Source: Raillietiella orientalis (Eukaryota). Taken from it: a DNA stretch of 64,000 nt. The notes beneath the pieces are model-generated. The model was not told the origin of the DNA, did not search any database, and saw nothing but the letters and a program-made list of their open reading frames with translations. Shown piece by piece: positions 10,821 through 35,661 of this stretch; within the stretch, counting starts at the first letter, position 1; each line of letters starts with the position of its first letter. The stretch covers positions 1,302,001 through 1,366,000 of the forward strand of contig JAYWIR010000022.1 of assembly GCA_036172245.1 (NCBI GenBank), given 5' to 3'. Position numbers and translations under genes: made by a program.

Positions 10821-13424
10821 GTGGTTCCTAAAAGGTGCTAAAAATAATGCATTAGGTCTTAACAGGAAATAAAGTTGTTTGAAAGAGTCCCCTAGAAGAA
10901 ACCGTAGAATAGCAGTAAATTTGGTAAATTTACTTTATCAAGAATAATGGGTAATTTATGCTGTTTCTTAGTTAAGTGCGCCTCAACGTAAATTGCATCC
11001 ACTGTTATCGACTCCAAGTGAATGGATTGTTATCAACTTCAACATGACCAAAGAATCATTAGACCCTAATGTATGTCTGTTAACCTTTTCCAAACACTGG
11101 AATGAAATTAATGAAATCATCAAAAGAAAGGTAAAGCATACGTGATCTTCCATACAAGGTTTCAGAGTAACAATTTGAAGACTTTATCTCTGAATTGTGT
11201 GTTTTTATTTACGAATATTTGTTTTAAGCATGTATTTAAATGTACAACTAATCATTTCTTTAAATGTTTAGGAAGTGGAAGATGATGAGATATTATCCAT
11301 GTTAAACCATGTACAACAAATATGCAACCTACTTGCTATGGCTGAAAACACAAGCATGGGCTTGCAACAGATGCTGTTATTGGAGATACAAAAACAAGAA
11401 GTCCTTAGCAAATTTGCCAAGTGGATGCATTATTGTCCAATAGAGTTTGCACCATGTTTACTTCAAGAGCAACTGAGATTACATAGCTTTGTTTTATCAG
11501 TTGGGATATATTTGTATTTGAGTAGTTCCTGTTTTTCTGCATTGTATCAGTTGCTGATTCTTTATCAGAAAATGGATGATCTCATATTTAGATCTGTTTT
11601 ATTAACATTAATGAGCCAAATTTTTTTACTATTGCATCAGCATCCTGAGTATTTGAAATTGTTACATTATCAAGATAAACCACAATTAGGAGATCGGTAA
11701 AGTTCTAAATAGTCATCCTTGCTGCTATATTTTGGTTTAGTGATCCTGACCTTTTGTATTCAGTGTTGGTTCCAATAATGTATGATAAATCTCCAGTTGG
11801 AGAGTGGGCACGAAATGTGCTCATCCTTGGAATCTCTTTATCTTGGAATGATCAAAATTTAGCCAATTATTTGGCTGAGAAATCTAATCTATTACATGTA
11901 AGGAAAATTTAGCAAATGATGGAATTCTTGATTGCTGCAGGTATTAGCCTCTGGACTCACAGGGCTATATTCCATGCTACCTCAAGAATTGCACATTAAC
12001 AATTCTGACTGGGGCCGATTCTCTCCCAAGGAAGTTAAGGAAGACCCAGAAATATCCCTGTTTGTTGCACATTGGCAGTTTTGTGAAAACTTATTAGAAA
12101 TTTCACCATCTGTAGTCCAGTGTAAATTTCTTGATTCATTGCATCAGATTTTTTTATTACCAATTCTTGTACCCAATGTTCTGCAGGTAAGAATAATGGA
12201 TTTTATTTTATCATTTCTATGATTGTGTTAGTTGCAAGTAGCGGTTGCTGCTACTTCGTATTTGGAGTTGTTGTTGCGTCATTCACATGTTAAAGTTCTC
12301 CAAAACACGTTGATAAAGTTGCTTTTGGATTCACAGCAGCCTGTTTTAGTCACCATCATGGCAAGGTTAAAGGATTCACATGAAGTATGTGTGGTTCTGA
12401 CATTTGCAACAAAAGTGACATGTTTGTGCTAGTTGGGTAGAGTCACTATCAGTTTGATGGAAACACTGATTCGACTTAACTGTGAGCAATTTACAAGAGC
12501 CATCATGCCTGATTGCCATTCAGTTTCTTCTCTGAAAACCTTGCCACAAAGTTTGCTGAACTTAACCCCATGTTGTTGTATTAAACCTATTCTTGCTGAA
12601 CTCAGTTATCTACCTTGGGCCATGGATACAGTACAGATGTATTCCCAAACTCATTATCAGGAATGTGGCTGGTCTGATTGTTCGCCTTCTGCAAGCAGTG
12701 GATATGAGAGTTCACATATACTTGATGAAAAATCTGCAAATCAGGCAGAACATTTGCACCTCATTGTAGAAGAGTTGGAGATACTTCTGGAACAGCTGTC
12801 CTGTCATGGTTCGGAAATTTCTGATACAGATGCTTGTGTTGTGCAGCAGCTCTCAAAGAGCAGTCATGTGACTGCATTGTTTTCCTGTGCATCAGCATTA
12901 TTCGTTTCCCTGCTCACTCCCTTGACATCCTTTTGGATGTTGAATATGTATTTCCTGTTGCAGTTGACAAGTGCTTGGAGTCACTTGATTGCCCAGCCAG
13001 GGGGACTAGTACTTCTACATGAGGAAGCTCCTTTATGGTGTTTGTTAACAGAACTCAAACGAGAAGTTGATGAACAGATTGCACAGATGCCTCAGTGTCC
13101 ATCACTGATGACAAAAGCTCAGGATTTTTTGCATGAAAGAGAGCAGTTTATATGTATGGGTCATGAATCAAGTGTGTTCTCCAAAAGAGATAAGCAGCAG
13201 AAGTTTAGTCACTGGTTTCACCAATCAATGAGAAAGCGTCAGATTACATTTGGTCGTCCCAAGTCAGTCCGTAGGTTAGTGTTAACAATATGAAAAGTCT
13301 ATATAATTTTTTATATAGTTCAGAAACTGTGTCCCGAATGGCTCGTATTCTTGTGTTTGCAGAATGGCTTCAAGAGCTAGCAGCTATAGTGTTTGCTCAA
13401 AATAAGTTGGTTGAAAATTGCTGA
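10765..13424 (+). CDS. FHIP1: FHF complex subunit HOOK-interacting protein 1 (FAM160A / RAI16-like family). Exons ~10765-10818 (tentative), 10972-11130, 11272-11696, 11741-11897, 11941-12186, 12232-12384, 12433-13274, 13319-13424
   Basis: DPNVCLLTFSKHWNEI (cf. DPETCLMVFKNHWSQV), LLYSVLVPIMYDKSPVGEWARNVLIL, VLASGLTGLYSMLP (cf. VLATGLSGLYSSLP) and C-terminal VFAEWLQELAAI (cf. IFPEFLKELAAI). Frame-consistent GT-AG introns of 43-48 nt. The start could alternatively be the ATG at 11044. Confidence 0.9.
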
Positions 13425-13900
13425 ATTTTGCATTTCGCACCCAGTGGGATCAGGTCCTGTTGATTATGCAGTCAGCTGCAGTGAATAGTGTGTTGTTCAC
13501 AAGTAGTTAGAACAGCATACTTTTTTGAGGCTACTGTTTAACAAATGTTTAATCAGAACTACACAGTAAAATGAACTGCTGGGGATTTGGCTTGGACCAT
13601 CAGCATTACAATAGCAGATGGAAAAGCAAGTGGGGTTAAAAGATGGCTTGGTAATTATGATGGTGTGCAATTCTAGAACTTTGCAAATTGGACACACAGT
13701 ATTGCAATAAACTATTAGGAAAAATCTCCAGGAAATCAATAGCCTAAGTTCATTTTAAGCGTTGTCACATACAGATTCAATCAAGAAAAATTCAGCAGTT
13801 TGCCATCATGATCATCATGAAAAATGAACTAAAAAAAGGATACCATAGCACTAAAAATATGTATTATGCATAACACAGTAAGAATCCCTCATCATAGAGG

Positions 13901-14851
13901 ATGACCCACTCACTGCACAAAACTAAGCAGTCCAAATGGTAAGCAACAAGTTTTAAAGTTGTGCTCCATGTTGATTTTAGTTTAAAAACATACGAGTGTG
14001 GTATCTGCCAAGCTGTATTTCACAGCCAACAAGCATGCCGCCTCCATAGTTATCATCATGTGAAAGACAAACCATTTAAGTGAGATAGATAGTTTCTACA
14101 GTGACTTTTTTAGTGCCAGATTGTAGGTGTACCACTGAAGGGTGTGGAAAGAGCTATGCACTACAGAGTCGCCTGCAGAGGCATTTGCTGACTCATAAAC
14201 TGCAGTATGCATGTGCTGTACAAAATTGCAACTTTGTCAGTAGCTCTTGGTTAGAATACAGGAAGCATCGTGCTCAAAGTCACAGTAAGTATAACAAGCT
14301 TCTATTACCACTATTTGCAGAGCATATATGTAATATTTGTGGCAAACAGTGTATCCGAGCACGACAATTACAGCTTCATCAAAAAACGCATGATGAAGAC
14401 AGAGAAATATTCTCATGTACATATGCTGATTGCAATCGTGTTTATCACTTTGAACGCAATTTAAGGCAGCATGTGCGTGTCTTCCATGAAGGTTTGCGAT
14501 ATAAATGCAATTACTTAGGTTGTAACAGACAACTCAGTTCCAAGGTATAACAGTTTGCAAAGGGATAGGTAATTTAGGGTTTTTATGTAGGCTAAATTGC
14601 AGGAACATGTAAACAAGCTTCATGGCAAACAGAAGCATACAAGCCACACTACCAAAAAGCCACGTAGCAAACGCAAGGATTTAGGGAAACCTCACAGAAG
14701 TATAGCAGAGGAGCTATCTGGAATTAAATTAGGACCAGCACTAAGCAGACAAGTTGCACAAAGAGCAAACATCCATACAGTAGATGTGCAAAAGATTGAA
14801 CTCCAATGGAATGAGGAGGAGGAGAATTGTCAGATGTTACAAATAATATGA
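13901..14851 (+). CDS. GTF3A: TFIIIA-like C2H2 zinc-finger protein with six fingers. Exons 13901-13938, 13981-14079, 14127-14284, 14321-14544, 14591-14851
   Basis: Fingers match TFIIIA F4-F9 in order: YECGIC..HSYHH, CTTEGCGKSYALQSRLQRH (F5 type), CAVQNCNFVSSSWLEYRKH (F6 with its diagnostic W), CNIC..HQKTH, CTYADCNRVYHFERNLRQHVRVFH (F8) and CNYLGC..HVNKLH. The basic tail KKPRSKRKD..RSIAEELSG resembles RSLASxLSG. The start codon is uncertain. Confidence 0.85.
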
Positions 14852-14867
14852 ATAAAAACTCTTGAAA

Positions 14868-15843
14868 TCAATTTTGATCTGATTTTTTTTGTGCACGCAA
14901 TATGTTTACAATTGTAGCATCAGAACGTTCTTGTGTTTTCATAATGAGTTCAGGAGTCATGCATTTTTTCAAATATTCAATCACCTATTGCAGAAATTTT
15001 TTTTCATGAGTTTATGCAATTTACTAACCAGAGACGGTTCCTTTCCTCGGATCTTTACTGTAAGTTCATGATCTTTATCAAGAAGTTTTTTCATCAGAGC
15101 TACTTTTGTTTCCAAGTCATGTGCTGATATTTGGGTTCGAATTTGAATTTCTTTCTTCTTCGTACTACTGCTAGAAAGTCTGATGTCAACATTCTTTACT
15201 AATTTATTTGTGCTCTGAATACCAACTTGCACCAACTAAAAGACTACATTGGGCTTCTTACCATCCTCAATGCTGCATTACCTTAAAAAATCCCTTCATG
15301 ATAGTCCATTTATGCACATCAACGTATTTCTTTCATCTGCATACTTTATTAGTGCATTCATGTTATTACAGATTTATCTACCAAAGAACTCCAGTGTACA
15401 ACATCAATATGGCTGAAGACGTTACCACTCTAGAACGCTAAAAACTGAAATGATAACTGATTACTAAAACGCTAGTCTCCTTGTTGTAACTTTCTTGTGG
15501 CTTCATACGCAATCGGTAATTAGTACAAGAATCTGAACGTAAATCCCTCGACACGCGTGATCATTTCAGAAATATTTTCACCAATGGCAAGTTAGGCACC
15601 AATGTATCACTACTGCACATGGTGAAGAAAACGCCCCAAACTGTGTAACTTTGCCGCAAATTTCTAACATGATCCACACCTCTCCAGAGTTTGTGTGCTG
15701 GCATGTTTTATCCCACTAAAGGACATACCAACAATTTTTTGTTCCTTTTTCCCTTGGCAATCTGGGTCAAAATCAGTAACCCCAATATGTATACATGTTT
15801 TTGCCATATGCAACACGGAACGCACACACCGAGGAAACGCCAT
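14868..15843 (-). CDS. MTIF3: Mitochondrial translation initiation factor 3. The 3' exons (~15235-15029 and 14984-14868) are well supported; the 5' exons are tentative (candidate ATG 15843, MAFPRCVRSVLHMAK)
   Basis: KKEIQIRTQISAHDLETKVALMKKLLDKDHELTVKIR matches the IF3 C-domain (cf. KELILSSNIGQHDLDTK). A 44-nt intron (15028-14985) leads to a final exon VIEYLKK...VNILRAQKKSDQN*. I could not assemble the N-terminal exons unambiguously. Confidence 0.75.
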
Positions 15844-19141: not shown

Positions 19142-21491
19142 ATGGCAAAAATGTGCACTGGAATCAATATGAAGTATCTCATTATGAAGTGCCACTTTTA
19201 TTTATTTTTTGCTGGTATGTCTATAATTCTCAATAGTAAATCTATCATGCAAGGCATGGCAAAAACTGCCTGCAAGTTTTCAGATTGGTCAAGTGATTTC
19301 TAATCTTATAACAGAAAGAATTATAACGTAAACTACTAGAAAAATTATTCACCGAAACTGCATTGTATAGGAGATTCACATTCTGTAATTTTTGATGTGA
19401 AATAAAATGTATCTAACTGAAGAAAATCATGCTGCACTTTTCAAAGAATTTTGTTTTAGGTTCCGCCCCACTATTTACCTTCTTAACATTGGTTGCAAAA
19501 CAATTGGGACTGAATGAAGTTGCAGTTGGCATTTTATTTGGAACACTACCCATACTTGGTCTTATAAATAAGATTGTGTTTGGACTTTTGGCAGATCATT
19601 TTAAAGCTCATAAGTTGATTTTTCTAGTAGCTGTGCTAATTACTGCTTTACTACAATATGCCATACCTTTTTTACCACCCCTACCATTTACTGCCAGGAA
19701 CAGTCTCCACTGTGAAAATGGAAAAGCATTTGCATCCTTTATTGATCCTCCTCGTTATTTAAATGCAGATTTAGAGTGTTATTTGCAATGTTTTATACCT
19801 AAAGCTTCTTCACCAGATGATTGTGACCACAATCCTTACACAGAACAAATGACATTCATTGTGCAACTGCAAAATATTTCCCAAGCAGACTGCCATAATG
19901 ATACTGCATTATTTTTGCTGGCTTTCAAGGAGAAATATCCAGTCAGTTCTAGTAACTGTTTTCCCATTCCAGAAAATAGCAACTTTACTATATGTCCCTT
20001 TGAGAATTTAAACTGCTCCTTCACTTGCCCAGGAAGCCATCAGAAGATTCCAACAGCAGAAAATGCTGTATTTGAAATATCTACGTATGCATCAATTGAG
20101 TTTTTGTTATTGGTGTGTACTTTTTCCTTATTCTGGATGGCCATGGCTGTTGCTGTCAGTCTTGGGGATACTTTATGCATGGAGTTTGTTAGTAAGTTTA
20201 CTGGATAAATATGTCAAGTTAATATGCATTTCAGGTGATTCCTCTTTATATGGGAAACAGCGCTTGTTTGGTACATTAGGCTGGGGAACTAGTTCTATGT
20301 TGATAGGCTATCTCATCAACAAATACAGTTTCACTGCATGTCAGACAAATTACCTTCCAGCAGCTCTTTTGGGTGGCTCACTGCTTCTTGCTGACTTTAT
20401 CCTGTGTTGTGCGTATCTAAAGGTAATTATCATTACACTTAATGCAAGTCAATTTTCTCTAGATTCCAGAATTCAAAAGATCATCACATTCAATACAAAG
20501 TATGAGTCAGTTATTGTGTCAGGTGCCAGTCTTGACCATGTTTTTCCTCATTGTTGTTGTGGGAATAGGAACAAGTCTTATATGGCAATTTCTGTTCTGG
20601 TAAAAATAGTAAGTGTAGATGGAAAATCTAATGACTTTGCAGGTATGTTGATCACTTGACAGAAGCATGGAAAAGTAATTGGCAGAAACTTCTAGAAGGA
20701 CTTATAGTGGGAATACAGTGCATACTTGGAGAATTACCCTTTTTCTTCTTAGCAGGTATGTGAATTCCAACAAACAGGTGCAAATTTGATTCAAAAAGAA
20801 CAACATGATTTTTTTCTAAATCTCATGTTCCTTCAGGAAAATTTATCAAAATGCTTGGGCATCAAATGTGCATGACCTTAGTGCTCTTTGCTCTTGGAAT
20901 CCGATTTCTTTTGTATTCTGTGATATATAATCCATGGGTTGTACTTCCTGTTGAGATTTTACATGGTGTGTGTTTTGGTCTCTTCTATGCTACCATGGTA
21001 TCATTTTCCCACCATATTGCTACTGAAGGAAGTGCAGCCACAGTGCAGGGAATCAGTGGTGGACTATTTGAAGGTTTAGGTAAAAAAAACTCCTTTTTGT
21101 AGCTTTTGAGATTGAACTTTTATATCTCAAGGTGTGGCTGCTGGCAGCATGATTGCAGGAACTATGTTCAAAACACATGGAGACAGAGTCACTTTTTTCT
21201 GGTTTGGTGTTGCATTCCTTTTACTTGTATGCCTTCATTTATTGATACAATTAGCAAGAAGTCGTGTTTTCAAGCAAGGTAATTTTGATAGAAACATTGG
21301 CTTGCATGCAAAATATTGATAAAGGTTCAATTTTTTTAAAATATTAGTATCAAATTCCATGTTAAAGTAATACTTACCATACTAATATTTTTTAATTCCC
21401 AGAAAGAATACGCTCACTTTTCGTAGGATGGTTCAAGACAAGCCAAACTGGTAGTGATTCAACATTCGCGTGTATCCCTGAAGAAAAATGA
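19142..21491 (+). CDS. MFSD6-like major facilitator superfamily transporter, paralogue A. Exons 19142-19214, 19460-20191, 20235-20422, 20463-20599, 20643-20755, 20837-21079, 21132-21278, 21403-21491 (or an unspliced end at 21319)
   Basis: MKCHFYLFFAG-SAPLFTFLTLVAKQLGL, YGKQRLFGTLGWG, WQFLFWY, GELPFFFLAG and YNPWVVLPVEILHGVCFGLFY...ATVQG are MFSD6 / MFS_1_like motifs. It has a Cys-rich loop and frame-consistent introns. Confidence 0.92.
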
Positions 21492-24875: not shown

Positions 24876-27833
24876 TCATTCAACAGCACTAAGGGATTCC
24901 GGTCCGATTCCAGGACAAACGTCCTTCTTATCTTCTAGGGCAGAGCGATGAGATTGAGTCCTGCGGGCGCAGACTACCAGCAGCAGCTGAACAGCTCCTA
25001 GGGAGAACGCCGAGAAGATTATGAAGACACCGGCCCACCAGAAGGTGCGTTTTCCACCGAAGGTTCCATAGAGGACGCCAGCGACGATGCTGCCAACTCC
25101 GGTTCCTAGATCACCCAAGGGGAAGAGGAGAGTTGAAATCAACTCTGGAAGTACCTGTTAGAAGACGCTCTCACCCAGTGAGCCAAAGATCCCGTTGGCA
25201 ATAAACTGCATAGAAGCCGCTGCCCCTTCTGGGGAGATGTCATGGACATAGGATGTCAAGGAGGCAGCGAAGATCCCGAAGGCCGGTCCGTGGAGTAGCT
25301 CAATCGGAAGCAGCAGCCATGCGTTGTTCAGCCACGAGTAGGCTAAAAAGCGAAACCCCGAAGCCGCCAAGGAGACGAAGAAAGCTGCATGGTGGCCGAT
25401 GAGTCGTATGATGTGACCTAGGAGAGAGAAGGAGAGGAAAAGACAAGATGAATTGTCACCGAAGAGAATAAGACCACTCACCCGCTAGAAAAAAGCAAGG
25501 CATTTCTGCCAGGCACTCGATGGACAGCAGTAGTCCCTGGAGCAGTTTGATATGCGTCTGGTCCCCCCATTCGGAAGTCAGATCTTCTGCGTACCTTGAT
25601 AAAGGGAGTTGGTTGGATAGGAGAGCAGGAGCAGGCGCAGGGCCTCACCAAAACAAGAACTGCCACACGGCCCCCATTCCGGTGCCAGAGACGAAAAAGA
25701 TGATTAACGACGTCAGCACAGAGGGGGAGCGGAAGGTGGAGAGGACGTTGATAGCCAGTTTTTGGCTTTGGGGGAAACGGGGAATCTGCAACACGGAGGC
25801 GGCGCGCGTGCAGCACAGCACGTTGACGTGCTCTCTTTGCTCTCTTCCCTCCCACCCTCATACATGCCTGCCTTCCTCTTCTTTACCTTTATGAAAAAGA
25901 CCCACAGCAGTAGGTCAGCTGCAAGGAAGGCCGTAAGCAGCGAATAGGAAAGTAGATAACTCTTTATGGGGCAGCTGCCGTTGAGAATATCGAGGAGGCT
26001 ACCAGCCACAGGCACCATCACACCCCAACCCAGGGTACCCCACATCCTCTGCTTGCCGAAGTCGGACGGTCGGGCTTTGTGGAGCAAGGGATGGAGAAGA
26101 AGAAGAGGAAAATGAAGAGCATAAGACAGAGTCAGCAACATCCACCGCCCTTAACGTCACTCCCTCTCCCCTTTCTTCTCCCTTCTTACCGACCATATGG
26201 ACGCAAATGGTATCTGCAAGGGTGCTAACTACCGCTTCTGACACATTCCAGAGGCAGAGTATAGCGGCGAAGAGCCAGAAGCGAGACAGCAAGTGGACTG
26301 GAGGATTGGAGGGAGATGAGTCCTTGTCGTAGGGGCAGGTCACTTGGCACTGCAGCACCTTTGAGGAACATGGGAAAAAAGACTCAGGAGCTGGCAGACA
26401 GCACTCCTTGGGGGGGGCATTCAAACTGAGGTCCTCCACGGCCACCCACACGCTGTCTCCAAGTCCTCTGAGCGCTTCCACAAGATACGTGACCTCCTTG
26501 ACCTCCGTCATGTTCTGGCAGCCTGCGCTGCAGGTTGTTCTGGTAGTATTGTCGGGAGGGACCGAAGAGATAGGCAACTCGCACTGCATTTTGCAGAACG
26601 TGGCGGTCTCGCCTAGCAGAGGACAGTCCCTAGGCAGGGAAAAAGACCCGCCTCTGGCCGTGCATTGCAGCTGCACCTTTGCCGTGGGCAGAGGACCCAT
26701 CCTGGAGATGAGCAGGAGGAGGAACGGAAGCACGCCCGTGATGCTGATCGTCACCAGTAAAACCGCCTTGTGCAGCTGGAAGCGATCGATTAGCGGTCCC
26801 AGAAGAACCCTGGTCAGCAGCGCCAAAAAGGGGAAGCAGCCAAAAAGGATCCCTACGGTTACGTCTTGCACCCCCGCTTGTCGGGCAATGAGCGTCTGGA
26901 ACGGGTAAACGGGAGCGATTCCTGGAATAGAGGGAGTGATCTTCTGTCGAGAGATGGTATAGGGGAGTCTTTTCGGTGGCAGAGGAGGATGGTCTTAGCC
27001 TGCCTTCCTCAGAGACGGGAAAGAAAGGAGGAAGGAAAGAAGCGCTCAGGGCGTGTGGAAAGGATTGATTTTGTGACCCTCTCCGAGGTTGCGTGCATCC
27101 TTCGCGCTGCAAGTATCCCCTTCATCCCGCATTCCGCCTCAAGCCCTTTCGTAAGCATTTAGAGAAGAAAGGACGTGTTTTCGTGCCCCGAGACACTTTC
27201 AGATAGCAGCACAGACCGCCACGTACCATGGGGGTGGGAAGCGTGAAAGGAGGTTCCGGGGACAGAGGAGCGGAGGTAGTGCTTTTTCTTCCCTGAAGAC
27301 GGTCTGTTCCTCCTCTCTGCTCCGAAAAACGAACCCAGATTCCGGGTAATCCTTTTATTTTTCGAGACTCCAGATGCAGAATGTGACGTTCCGAACAGCA
27401 GCAGCTAGCAGGATTCTAAAAAAACGCCGCGGATCCCCACGAACGCGTTTTTTTTTCTTTTTTCTTTTGGAAACCTGTCTCGACTTCGCGAAGGGGGCAA
27501 TGAGTACGGTGCGGTGGTGGATGGAGTCGGGGTGGCGGAGAGAAGGAGGAGGAGCGTCTCGCTGGGGCGGATGACGTGCCGGTAGAGGCACGCTGCTGTT
27601 CGGAAACGTATCAGATACCAAAGTGCTGGGAGCGCGCTTCGCTATCGAGAGTCGCCAAGGAATGCTGCGAGAGATAGCGAAATAGCAACAAGGAAGCGAA
27701 GGAAGAGGAGGAAGGAAAGAAAAGCCAATTGGCGTGAAAATCCTTCGCTCTTACCTGCATAAAACACGAGGTAATGCAGTTTCATGGCGATCATGTTCTC
27801 AGGAGCACCGAGGGCCTTCATCACGGCCTTCAT
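24876..27833 (-). CDS. MFSD6-like MFS transporter, paralogue B (GC-rich). Exons 27833-27755, 26921-26190, 26074-25887, 25785-25649, 25594-25482, 25417-25175, 25105-24876
   Basis: MKLHYLVFYAG-IAPVYPFQTLIARQAGV, FGKQRMWGTLGWG, WQFLFWY, AEMPCFFLAG and NNAWLLLPIELLHGPAFGIF. All six introns match paralogue A in position and phase. Confidence 0.92.

Positions 27834-33078: not shown

Positions 33079-35661
<2,583 letters not shown>

Follow-up and report, generated by a model that had tools for sequence, protein, structure and literature searches.

The window is a stretch of 64,000 nucleotides from Raillietiella orientalis (GenBank assembly GCA_036172245.1), and its forward strand carries an FHIP1-like gene followed by a TFIIIA-like gene. 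The upstream gene (RAI16-like, with KELAA just below its cut-off) ends in an exon at 13319-13424, with the stop codon at 13422-13424. The TFIIIA-like gene was predicted from the DNA sequence as five exons separated by GT-AG introns of 42, 47, 36 and 46 nt, giving an intact frame of 259 amino acids. Predicted exon 1, the first coding one (13901-13938), contains the ATG, 12 codons and a phase-2 donor. Exon 2 (13981-14079) encodes F4 (13997-14059), with a C-x2-C and a decayed recognition helix. F5 (14128-14196) and F6 (14212-14283), the latter with the conserved Trp, are in exon 3 (14127-14284), and exon 4 (14321-14544) holds F7 (14329-14391), F8 (14416-14487) and the start of F9 (from 14506). 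The final exon (14591-14851) completes F9 (to 14623) and encodes a basic stretch and RSxAxxLSG tail (14654-14722). Its stop codon is at 14849-14851, with an AATAAA at 14851-14856. Most introns of the neighbouring FHIP1 gene, read off the sequence, are of similar length, and the introns before F5, after F6 and inside F9 presumably match the positions in vertebrate TFIIIA. The predicted first exon is not unique and the 5′ end is ambiguous: an alternative start (ATG 13866, intron 13878-13930, 8-nt micro-exon 13931-13938) is also in frame and adds no finger.

Between the FHIP1 stop codon and the ATG lies a gap of 476 nt (13425-13900) without F1-F3 coding. It contains a single AATAAA (13706-13711), 189 nt before the ATG, which is likely the FHIP1 poly(A) signal. 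Close to the ATG (13878-13897) are a GTAAG donor-like site at 13878 and an unpaired AG at 13896-13897; the latter, 3 nt before the ATG, is a candidate acceptor of a 5′-UTR or leader splice. The gap was searched with a splice-aware profile-to-DNA aligner, which in control runs found the true introns again, scoring 102 bits for F4-F6 and 142 bits for F7-F9. With introns allowed, F1-F3 scored 14.6 bits against a null of 14.9 ± 2.0 (n=60), and with one frameshift allowed 17.4 bits against 15.6-21.2 in five control stretches. This agrees with the earlier note on this DNA, which had seen no finger coding in the 0.5 kb back to the FHIP1 stop. A hexapeptide with H-x4-H at 13751-13768 was at chance level and was rejected.

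Downstream, a mitochondrial IF3-like gene at 14981-15235 on the reverse strand (IF3_C, E 7.6e-6) converges on the TFIIIA-like gene and ends about 130 nt from its stop codon, and the two 3′ UTRs probably overlap. Further along the window, FEM-1 (34141-35661, forward strand) is followed by a snurportin-like gene from 35854, with an AATAAA and an acceptor-like site between them, a junction similar in kind to that between FHIP1 and TFIIIA. The best identity of the FEM-1 protein was 48% over its full length, and no close relative was found; the lineage is a long-branch one among animals. Two related transporter-like frames, at 19417-20659 (forward) and 25713-26994 (reverse), face each other and have very different GC content.

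Finger identity and homology to TFIIIA

The predicted protein has exactly six C2H2 motifs, with all 24 zinc ligands intact. Homologs were collected by querying 1.84 billion representative proteins with the F5-F9 frame, which listed 150 matches, and per-finger profiles were built from 30 of them that are shorter than 700 amino acids and possess nine fingers and the F6 Trp. The best profiles followed in order: F4 (20.9 bits), F5 (46.6), F6 (31.3), F7 (21.3), F8 (55.8) and F9 (33.8). Single finger assignments are not all sharp by these profiles (F5 scored 41.8 bits as F2, and F7 17.3 bits as F2 or F5); the order of the fingers and the F6 and F8 calls are. The region after F9 fits the basic and RS-x-A-x-x-LSG pattern of the 30 homologs and closely resembles the tail of several nine-finger homologs. 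The order of the profiles and the tail comparison thus bear out the earlier one-to-one reading of the six fingers as F4-F9 followed by a TFIIIA tail. The leader before the first Cys, 18 amino acids long, is inside the homolog range.

The Pfam family TFIIIA_zf-C2H2 (PF22110) was over its cut-off (29.2 vs 27). The best match among solved structures was the Xenopus-type TFIIIA 1tf6 (E 1e-12), with YY1 narrowly second (1.2e-12). Most full-length homologs recovered have nine fingers. A few of those listed begin near F3 or F4 (P0063, P0145, P0147) and may be partial predictions. A word-index protein search with the F5-F9 frame gave no match either at longer lengths (91 candidates, E<=1e-10) or at near lengths (eight candidates, E<=1e-5). 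The one locus recovered from 105 candidates in a metagenome scan was an unrelated single finger and was rejected, and an Atlas search returned generic C2H2 clusters, the TFIIIA cluster being at rank 14 with a recognition value below threshold.

The six-finger feature is real in this assembly. As judged from the sequence, the protein is a TFIIIA by descent that departs from the nine-finger layout: it has the F4-F9 signatures in order and an activation-type tail and is the best and only TFIIIA match in its genome (the counts being lower bounds), and it does not have nine fingers including the box C-binding F1-F3.

Searches for F1-F3 and for a second TFIIIA

The assembly searched comprises 210 Mb in 491 contigs. 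This locus was the sole genome match of an F5-F6 query, and an F7-F9 query matched it with E 3e-47 and other places with 3e-4 or worse. A foreign F4-F9 query and a nine-finger query ranked it first (E 3.3e-22 and 2.3e-16, respectively), and PF22110 exceeded its cut-off only here. Two side matches to PF22110 (C21:474244-477339 and C1:8741265-8744366) were rejected as TFIIIA; from their motifs, we take both to be MTF-1-like genes. A gene which we take, also from motifs, to be ferritin-like converges on the one on C21.

By protein, family and DNA searches of the assembly the TFIIIA-like gene was single-copy, and neither a second F5-F9 copy nor a nine-finger TFIIIA was found. The six-finger gene is likely the animal's only TFIIIA, a premise that the earlier note had put conditionally and that is supported by the locus being the single or top match in every search of its own genome. 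The dominant-negative paralogue also suggested there would be left without a partner, no nine-finger copy having been found.

It had also been suggested that the first exons lie elsewhere. This found no support within C22:1,002,001-1,466,000 (464 kb), where F1-F3 gave nothing above chance on either strand. Outside the gene no score exceeded 27.5 bits, reached by a 9-mer in non-coding DNA; chance gives about 15-27 bits, and in calibration of the aligner seven held-out TFIIIA F1-F3 modules scored 102-200 bits. A finger-like spliced join 110 kb upstream and an F1-like 9-mer 105 kb downstream were rejected as look-alikes.

Across the genome, F1-F3-type protein queries from six homologs gave 25, 94, 136, 13, 11 and 142 matches; for three of the six, the best 150 of 166, 223 and 162 candidates were scored. 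Only other zinc-finger families were present at the inspected loci, about ten weak places lying outside the inspection. The top inspected loci reached up to 113 bits, overlapping the low end of true F1-F3 modules. We take these high-scoring loci, from their motifs, to be Sp, KLF, MTF-1, YY1 and similar genes.

Five motif scans of the assembly were exhaustive for exact matches. The first F2 motif, present as searched in 39 of 45 homologs, had 45 matches compared with 41 in the control; all 45 were inspected and none was a TFIIIA F2. Counts for the second F2 motif were 5 (control 6), for the first F1 motif 279 (control 212; 100 listed, of which four were inspected and all rejected), for the other F1 motif 82 (control 92) and for the F3 motif 60 (control 41), an excess due partly to one repeated element. 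That element, found on C1, C26, C28, C68, C73, C89 and C92, has a His-x4-His helix and makes up 9 of the 60 F3-motif matches; presumably it is a transposon zinc finger. Besides the four F1-motif matches, two further matches and an F2-like 16-mer on C2 were rejected as look-alikes. No correctly ordered pair of F1, F2 and F3 motifs was found within 30 kb; only 26 of the 45 homologs would show two of the three motifs.

The best remaining candidate for a separate F1-F3 module is at C1:3974910-3974941 on the forward strand. It is an exact match to the second F2 motif and reads like an F2 helix (CRKSYSRSVHL), and it was absent among the matches of two F2-aimed queries. The genome search never listed the gene's own single-finger F4 exon, and the window protein itself carries only two of five comparable consensus motifs. 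Diverged one-finger exons could therefore escape such searches, and the genome-wide negative for F1-F3, and with it for first exons elsewhere, is incomplete.

5S rRNA genes and conservation of the retained fingers

A genome search for 5S rRNA genes gave at least 43 matches, from 47 candidates scored. Among the 22 copies without gaps, box A starts at +50 and box C starts at +80, with the box C core GGATGGG intact in 21 of the 22. Inspection of box C, which the earlier note had proposed as a check, therefore found it unchanged. Judged by their sequence, the 5S promoters look like ordinary type 1 promoters with canonical box A and box C. Private substitutions gave no sign of extra selection on box C, being not clearly rarer there (9 in 18 sites, and 1 in 7 in the core) than outside the control region (32 in 62). 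No tRNA gene, whether as a tRNA-5S fusion or as a leader, was present at the ten loci tested of the 43 listed. Comparison of 5S upstream regions with those of two U6 genes gave 0 of 8 above shuffles, a weak test, as the two U6 regions resemble one another only at chance level. Since the boxes are canonical, and neither a tRNA gene nor a U6-like upstream region was found at the loci tested, the 5S genes require a factor of the TFIIIA type. In many copies there is an A-rich stretch near -30.

The 5S genes fall into two classes that differ at their ends and at +88, where a minor class (C23, C1) has A and a clustered class (C24, C40, C109, C12) has C. They are reminiscent of somatic and oocyte classes. 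Several unrelated upstream types occur among the 5S loci, and a decayed 5S copy lies about 440 bp before some of the genes. For U6 there were 48 matches among 48 scored; only two of the 12 inspected combine an intact end with a TATA-like stretch at -30; the other inspected copies look like retrocopies.

Leave-one-out z-scores against the 30 homologs were +0.35 for F8, -0.61 for F5, -0.86 for F9, -1.40 for F7, -1.82 for F6 and -2.25 for F4, the last being biased low because the homologs were gathered with an F5-F9 query. F8 is of average conservation, above 17 of the 30 homologs. The window F4 has no helix His, which is present in 17 of the 30, and F6 has kept its Trp. On these scores F4 and F6 appear the most decayed fingers and F8 the best kept.

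The roles of these fingers have been described in several systems. F4-F7 form the RNA-binding module of TFIIIA (PMC5100589, PMC2566860), and its two base-specific RNA contacts in all come from F4 and F6 (PMC5100589). In Xenopus, transcription suffers when F7, F8 or F9 is broken or 14 tail residues are deleted, and it tolerates a break in any one of F1-F6; an F3 mutant that binds 27-fold more weakly gave wild-type 5S synthesis in vitro, and weak DNA binding is buffered by the complex with TFIIIC (PMC1950542). In the yeast structure, F1-F3, F5 and F9 lie in the major groove, and tau138 is touched by F6-F8, F1 and the C-terminal helix (PMC10245719). Human F3 and F7 variants lower promoter binding (PMC13345412). 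Set beside these reports, the parts retained in the window protein would be the TFIIIC-docking and activation parts.

Interpretation and comparison with known systems

We think it rather probable that 5S transcription in this animal lineage relies on a TFIIIA without the whole box C-reading module, acting alone or as one half of a split factor. Our leading explanation, held tentatively, is that the gene encodes an intact TFIIIA of six fingers (F4-F9) and tail, likely the only one, which likely serves as an adaptor bringing TFIIIC to the 5S genes. On this reading, F5 and F9 would grip the promoter at the intermediate element and on the box A side, and docking of TFIIIC would fall to F6-F8 and the tail. 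Stabilisation within the TFIIIA-TFIIIC-TFIIIB complex may make up for the missing grip on box C, perhaps with help from the A-rich stretch that many 5S genes have near -30. The gene would likely have arisen through loss of the exons for F1-F3, a short leader being retained. The open frame, zinc ligands, splice sites, single copy and kept F8 and tail are consistent with such an adaptor. Several points speak against it. F1 of yeast is essential and is required for TFIIIC recruitment (PMC1950542). The plant TFIIIA-7ZF, which lacks F1-F2 alone, is reported, partly on unpublished data, not to bind 5S rDNA (PMC6164485). Box C is unchanged, with no visible compensation, and our literature search, with most subscription papers outside its reach, found neither a natural F4-F9 TFIIIA nor a report of an F4-F9 protein supporting transcription.

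How a six-finger protein finds box C is left unexplained by the adaptor, and for that reason we retain, as an unlikely alternative yet the nearest one, a split TFIIIA whose F1-F3 are at another locus, which either makes a polypeptide of its own for binding box C or contributes exons through trans- or very long-range splicing, the two halves doing the work together. The fully canonical box C, the unpaired AG before the ATG, the F2-helix-like match on C1 and the single-finger exons missed by the genome search are in its favour. Against it, the 464 kb of contig held nothing above chance on either strand, the six F1-F3 queries found only other zinc-finger families at inspected loci, the first F2 motif gave no TFIIIA F2 and no ordered motif matches were found within 30 kb. 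The C1 site itself is one of five matches where the control had six. Less probable still is a derived paralog that stores 5S rRNA, like p43 or the plant TFIIIA-7ZF, the nine-finger TFIIIA having been missed or being missing from the assembly. Such a role would suit the kept F4-F7 RNA-binding module with its F6 Trp, the two 5S sequence classes in the genome and the known occurrence of p43 and of paralogous TFIIIA genes among fish and frogs (PMC4178482). It is at odds with the single F5-F9 copy found in the assembly and with the retention of F8 and the tail, which serve transcription. The decay of F4 and F6 and the good state of F8 favour a reduced transcription factor over RNA storage, so the storage derivative proposed in the earlier note is disfavoured.

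About as improbable as storage is an artefact or private allele: the assembly would have dropped the exons for F1-F3 in error, or the haplotype that was assembled would be the only one to lack them. The analysis rests on one assembly, most full-length homologs have nine fingers, as does Daphnia TFIIIA (PMC2889900), and the 476-nt gap would be about the length that F1-F3 with short introns need. The site, however, is 1.3 Mb inside a 3.2-Mb contig in a region without N, the first intron is of ordinary length and ends, and the junction has no repeat, no duplicate elsewhere in the assembly and no finger remnant; the 18-residue leader is also of usual length. These checks gave no sign of an assembly deletion at ~13.5-13.9 kb, evidence of which the earlier note had named as fatal to its reading. 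We regard as very improbable a TFIIIA-independent transcription of 5S genes from an upstream or read-through promoter, with the TFIIIA-like gene under relaxed selection as a minor RNA chaperone. The decay of F4, F6 and F7 would fit this, and in Yarrowia tRNA-5S fusions are reported to make TFIIIA dispensable (PMC2566860). It is opposed by the absence of a tRNA gene at all ten tested 5S loci, by the intact F8, tail and zinc ligands, and by the absence of an upstream motif common to the 5S and two U6 genes, although this last test is weak, the U6 pair itself matching only at chance.

Almost every TFIIIA has the nine-finger layout, and textbook accounts name F1-F3 as its main grip on DNA. A TFIIIA without them, whether working alone or as half of a split factor, would if true contradict the rule that type 1 Pol III promoters cannot do without F1-F3 as their anchor. 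Work in Xenopus and in yeast disagrees on how important that grip is once TFIIIC joins, and a natural F4-F9 protein on canonical 5S genes would test the minimum contacts for a type 1 promoter. A split factor, if true, would add a new architecture to those of Pol III initiation; an assembly loss, if true, would be an annotation warning only.

Compared with canonical nine-finger TFIIIA (Xenopus, PDB 1tf6/1un6; yeast, PDB 8ffz; human GTF3A), the window protein has the same F4-F9 order, F6 Trp, F8 signature and tail, but is without the box C-binding F1-F3 and has a decayed F4 helix. The plant TFIIIA-7ZF is likewise N-terminally shortened, with RNA-binding fingers and C-terminus kept, but it has two fingers fewer (F1-F2) and is an alternative splice product of a gene from which the nine-finger form is made as well (PMC6164485). 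In the window gene, by contrast, three fingers are absent from the gene itself, there being no F1-F3 exons at the locus, and a nine-finger form was not found. The TFIIIA-related 42Sp43 (p43, thesaurin b) of frogs and fish resembles the window protein in that the latter, too, could bind 5S RNA without gripping the gene; p43, however, has nine fingers, coexists with TFIIIA and binds RNA only (PMC4178482), whereas the window protein has six fingers and a TFIIIA tail, and no separate TFIIIA gene was found in its genome. The one TFIIIA of Daphnia has nine fingers, and in worms no TFIIIA had been identified (PMC2889900). Giardia is described as without TFIIIA and without a 5S control region (PMC3369914). 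In Yarrowia lipolytica, the usual requirement for TFIIIA is relaxed through tRNA-5S fusions (PMC2566860). Unlike in that yeast, no such fusion was present at the ten loci tested here, and it is TFIIIA itself that is altered.
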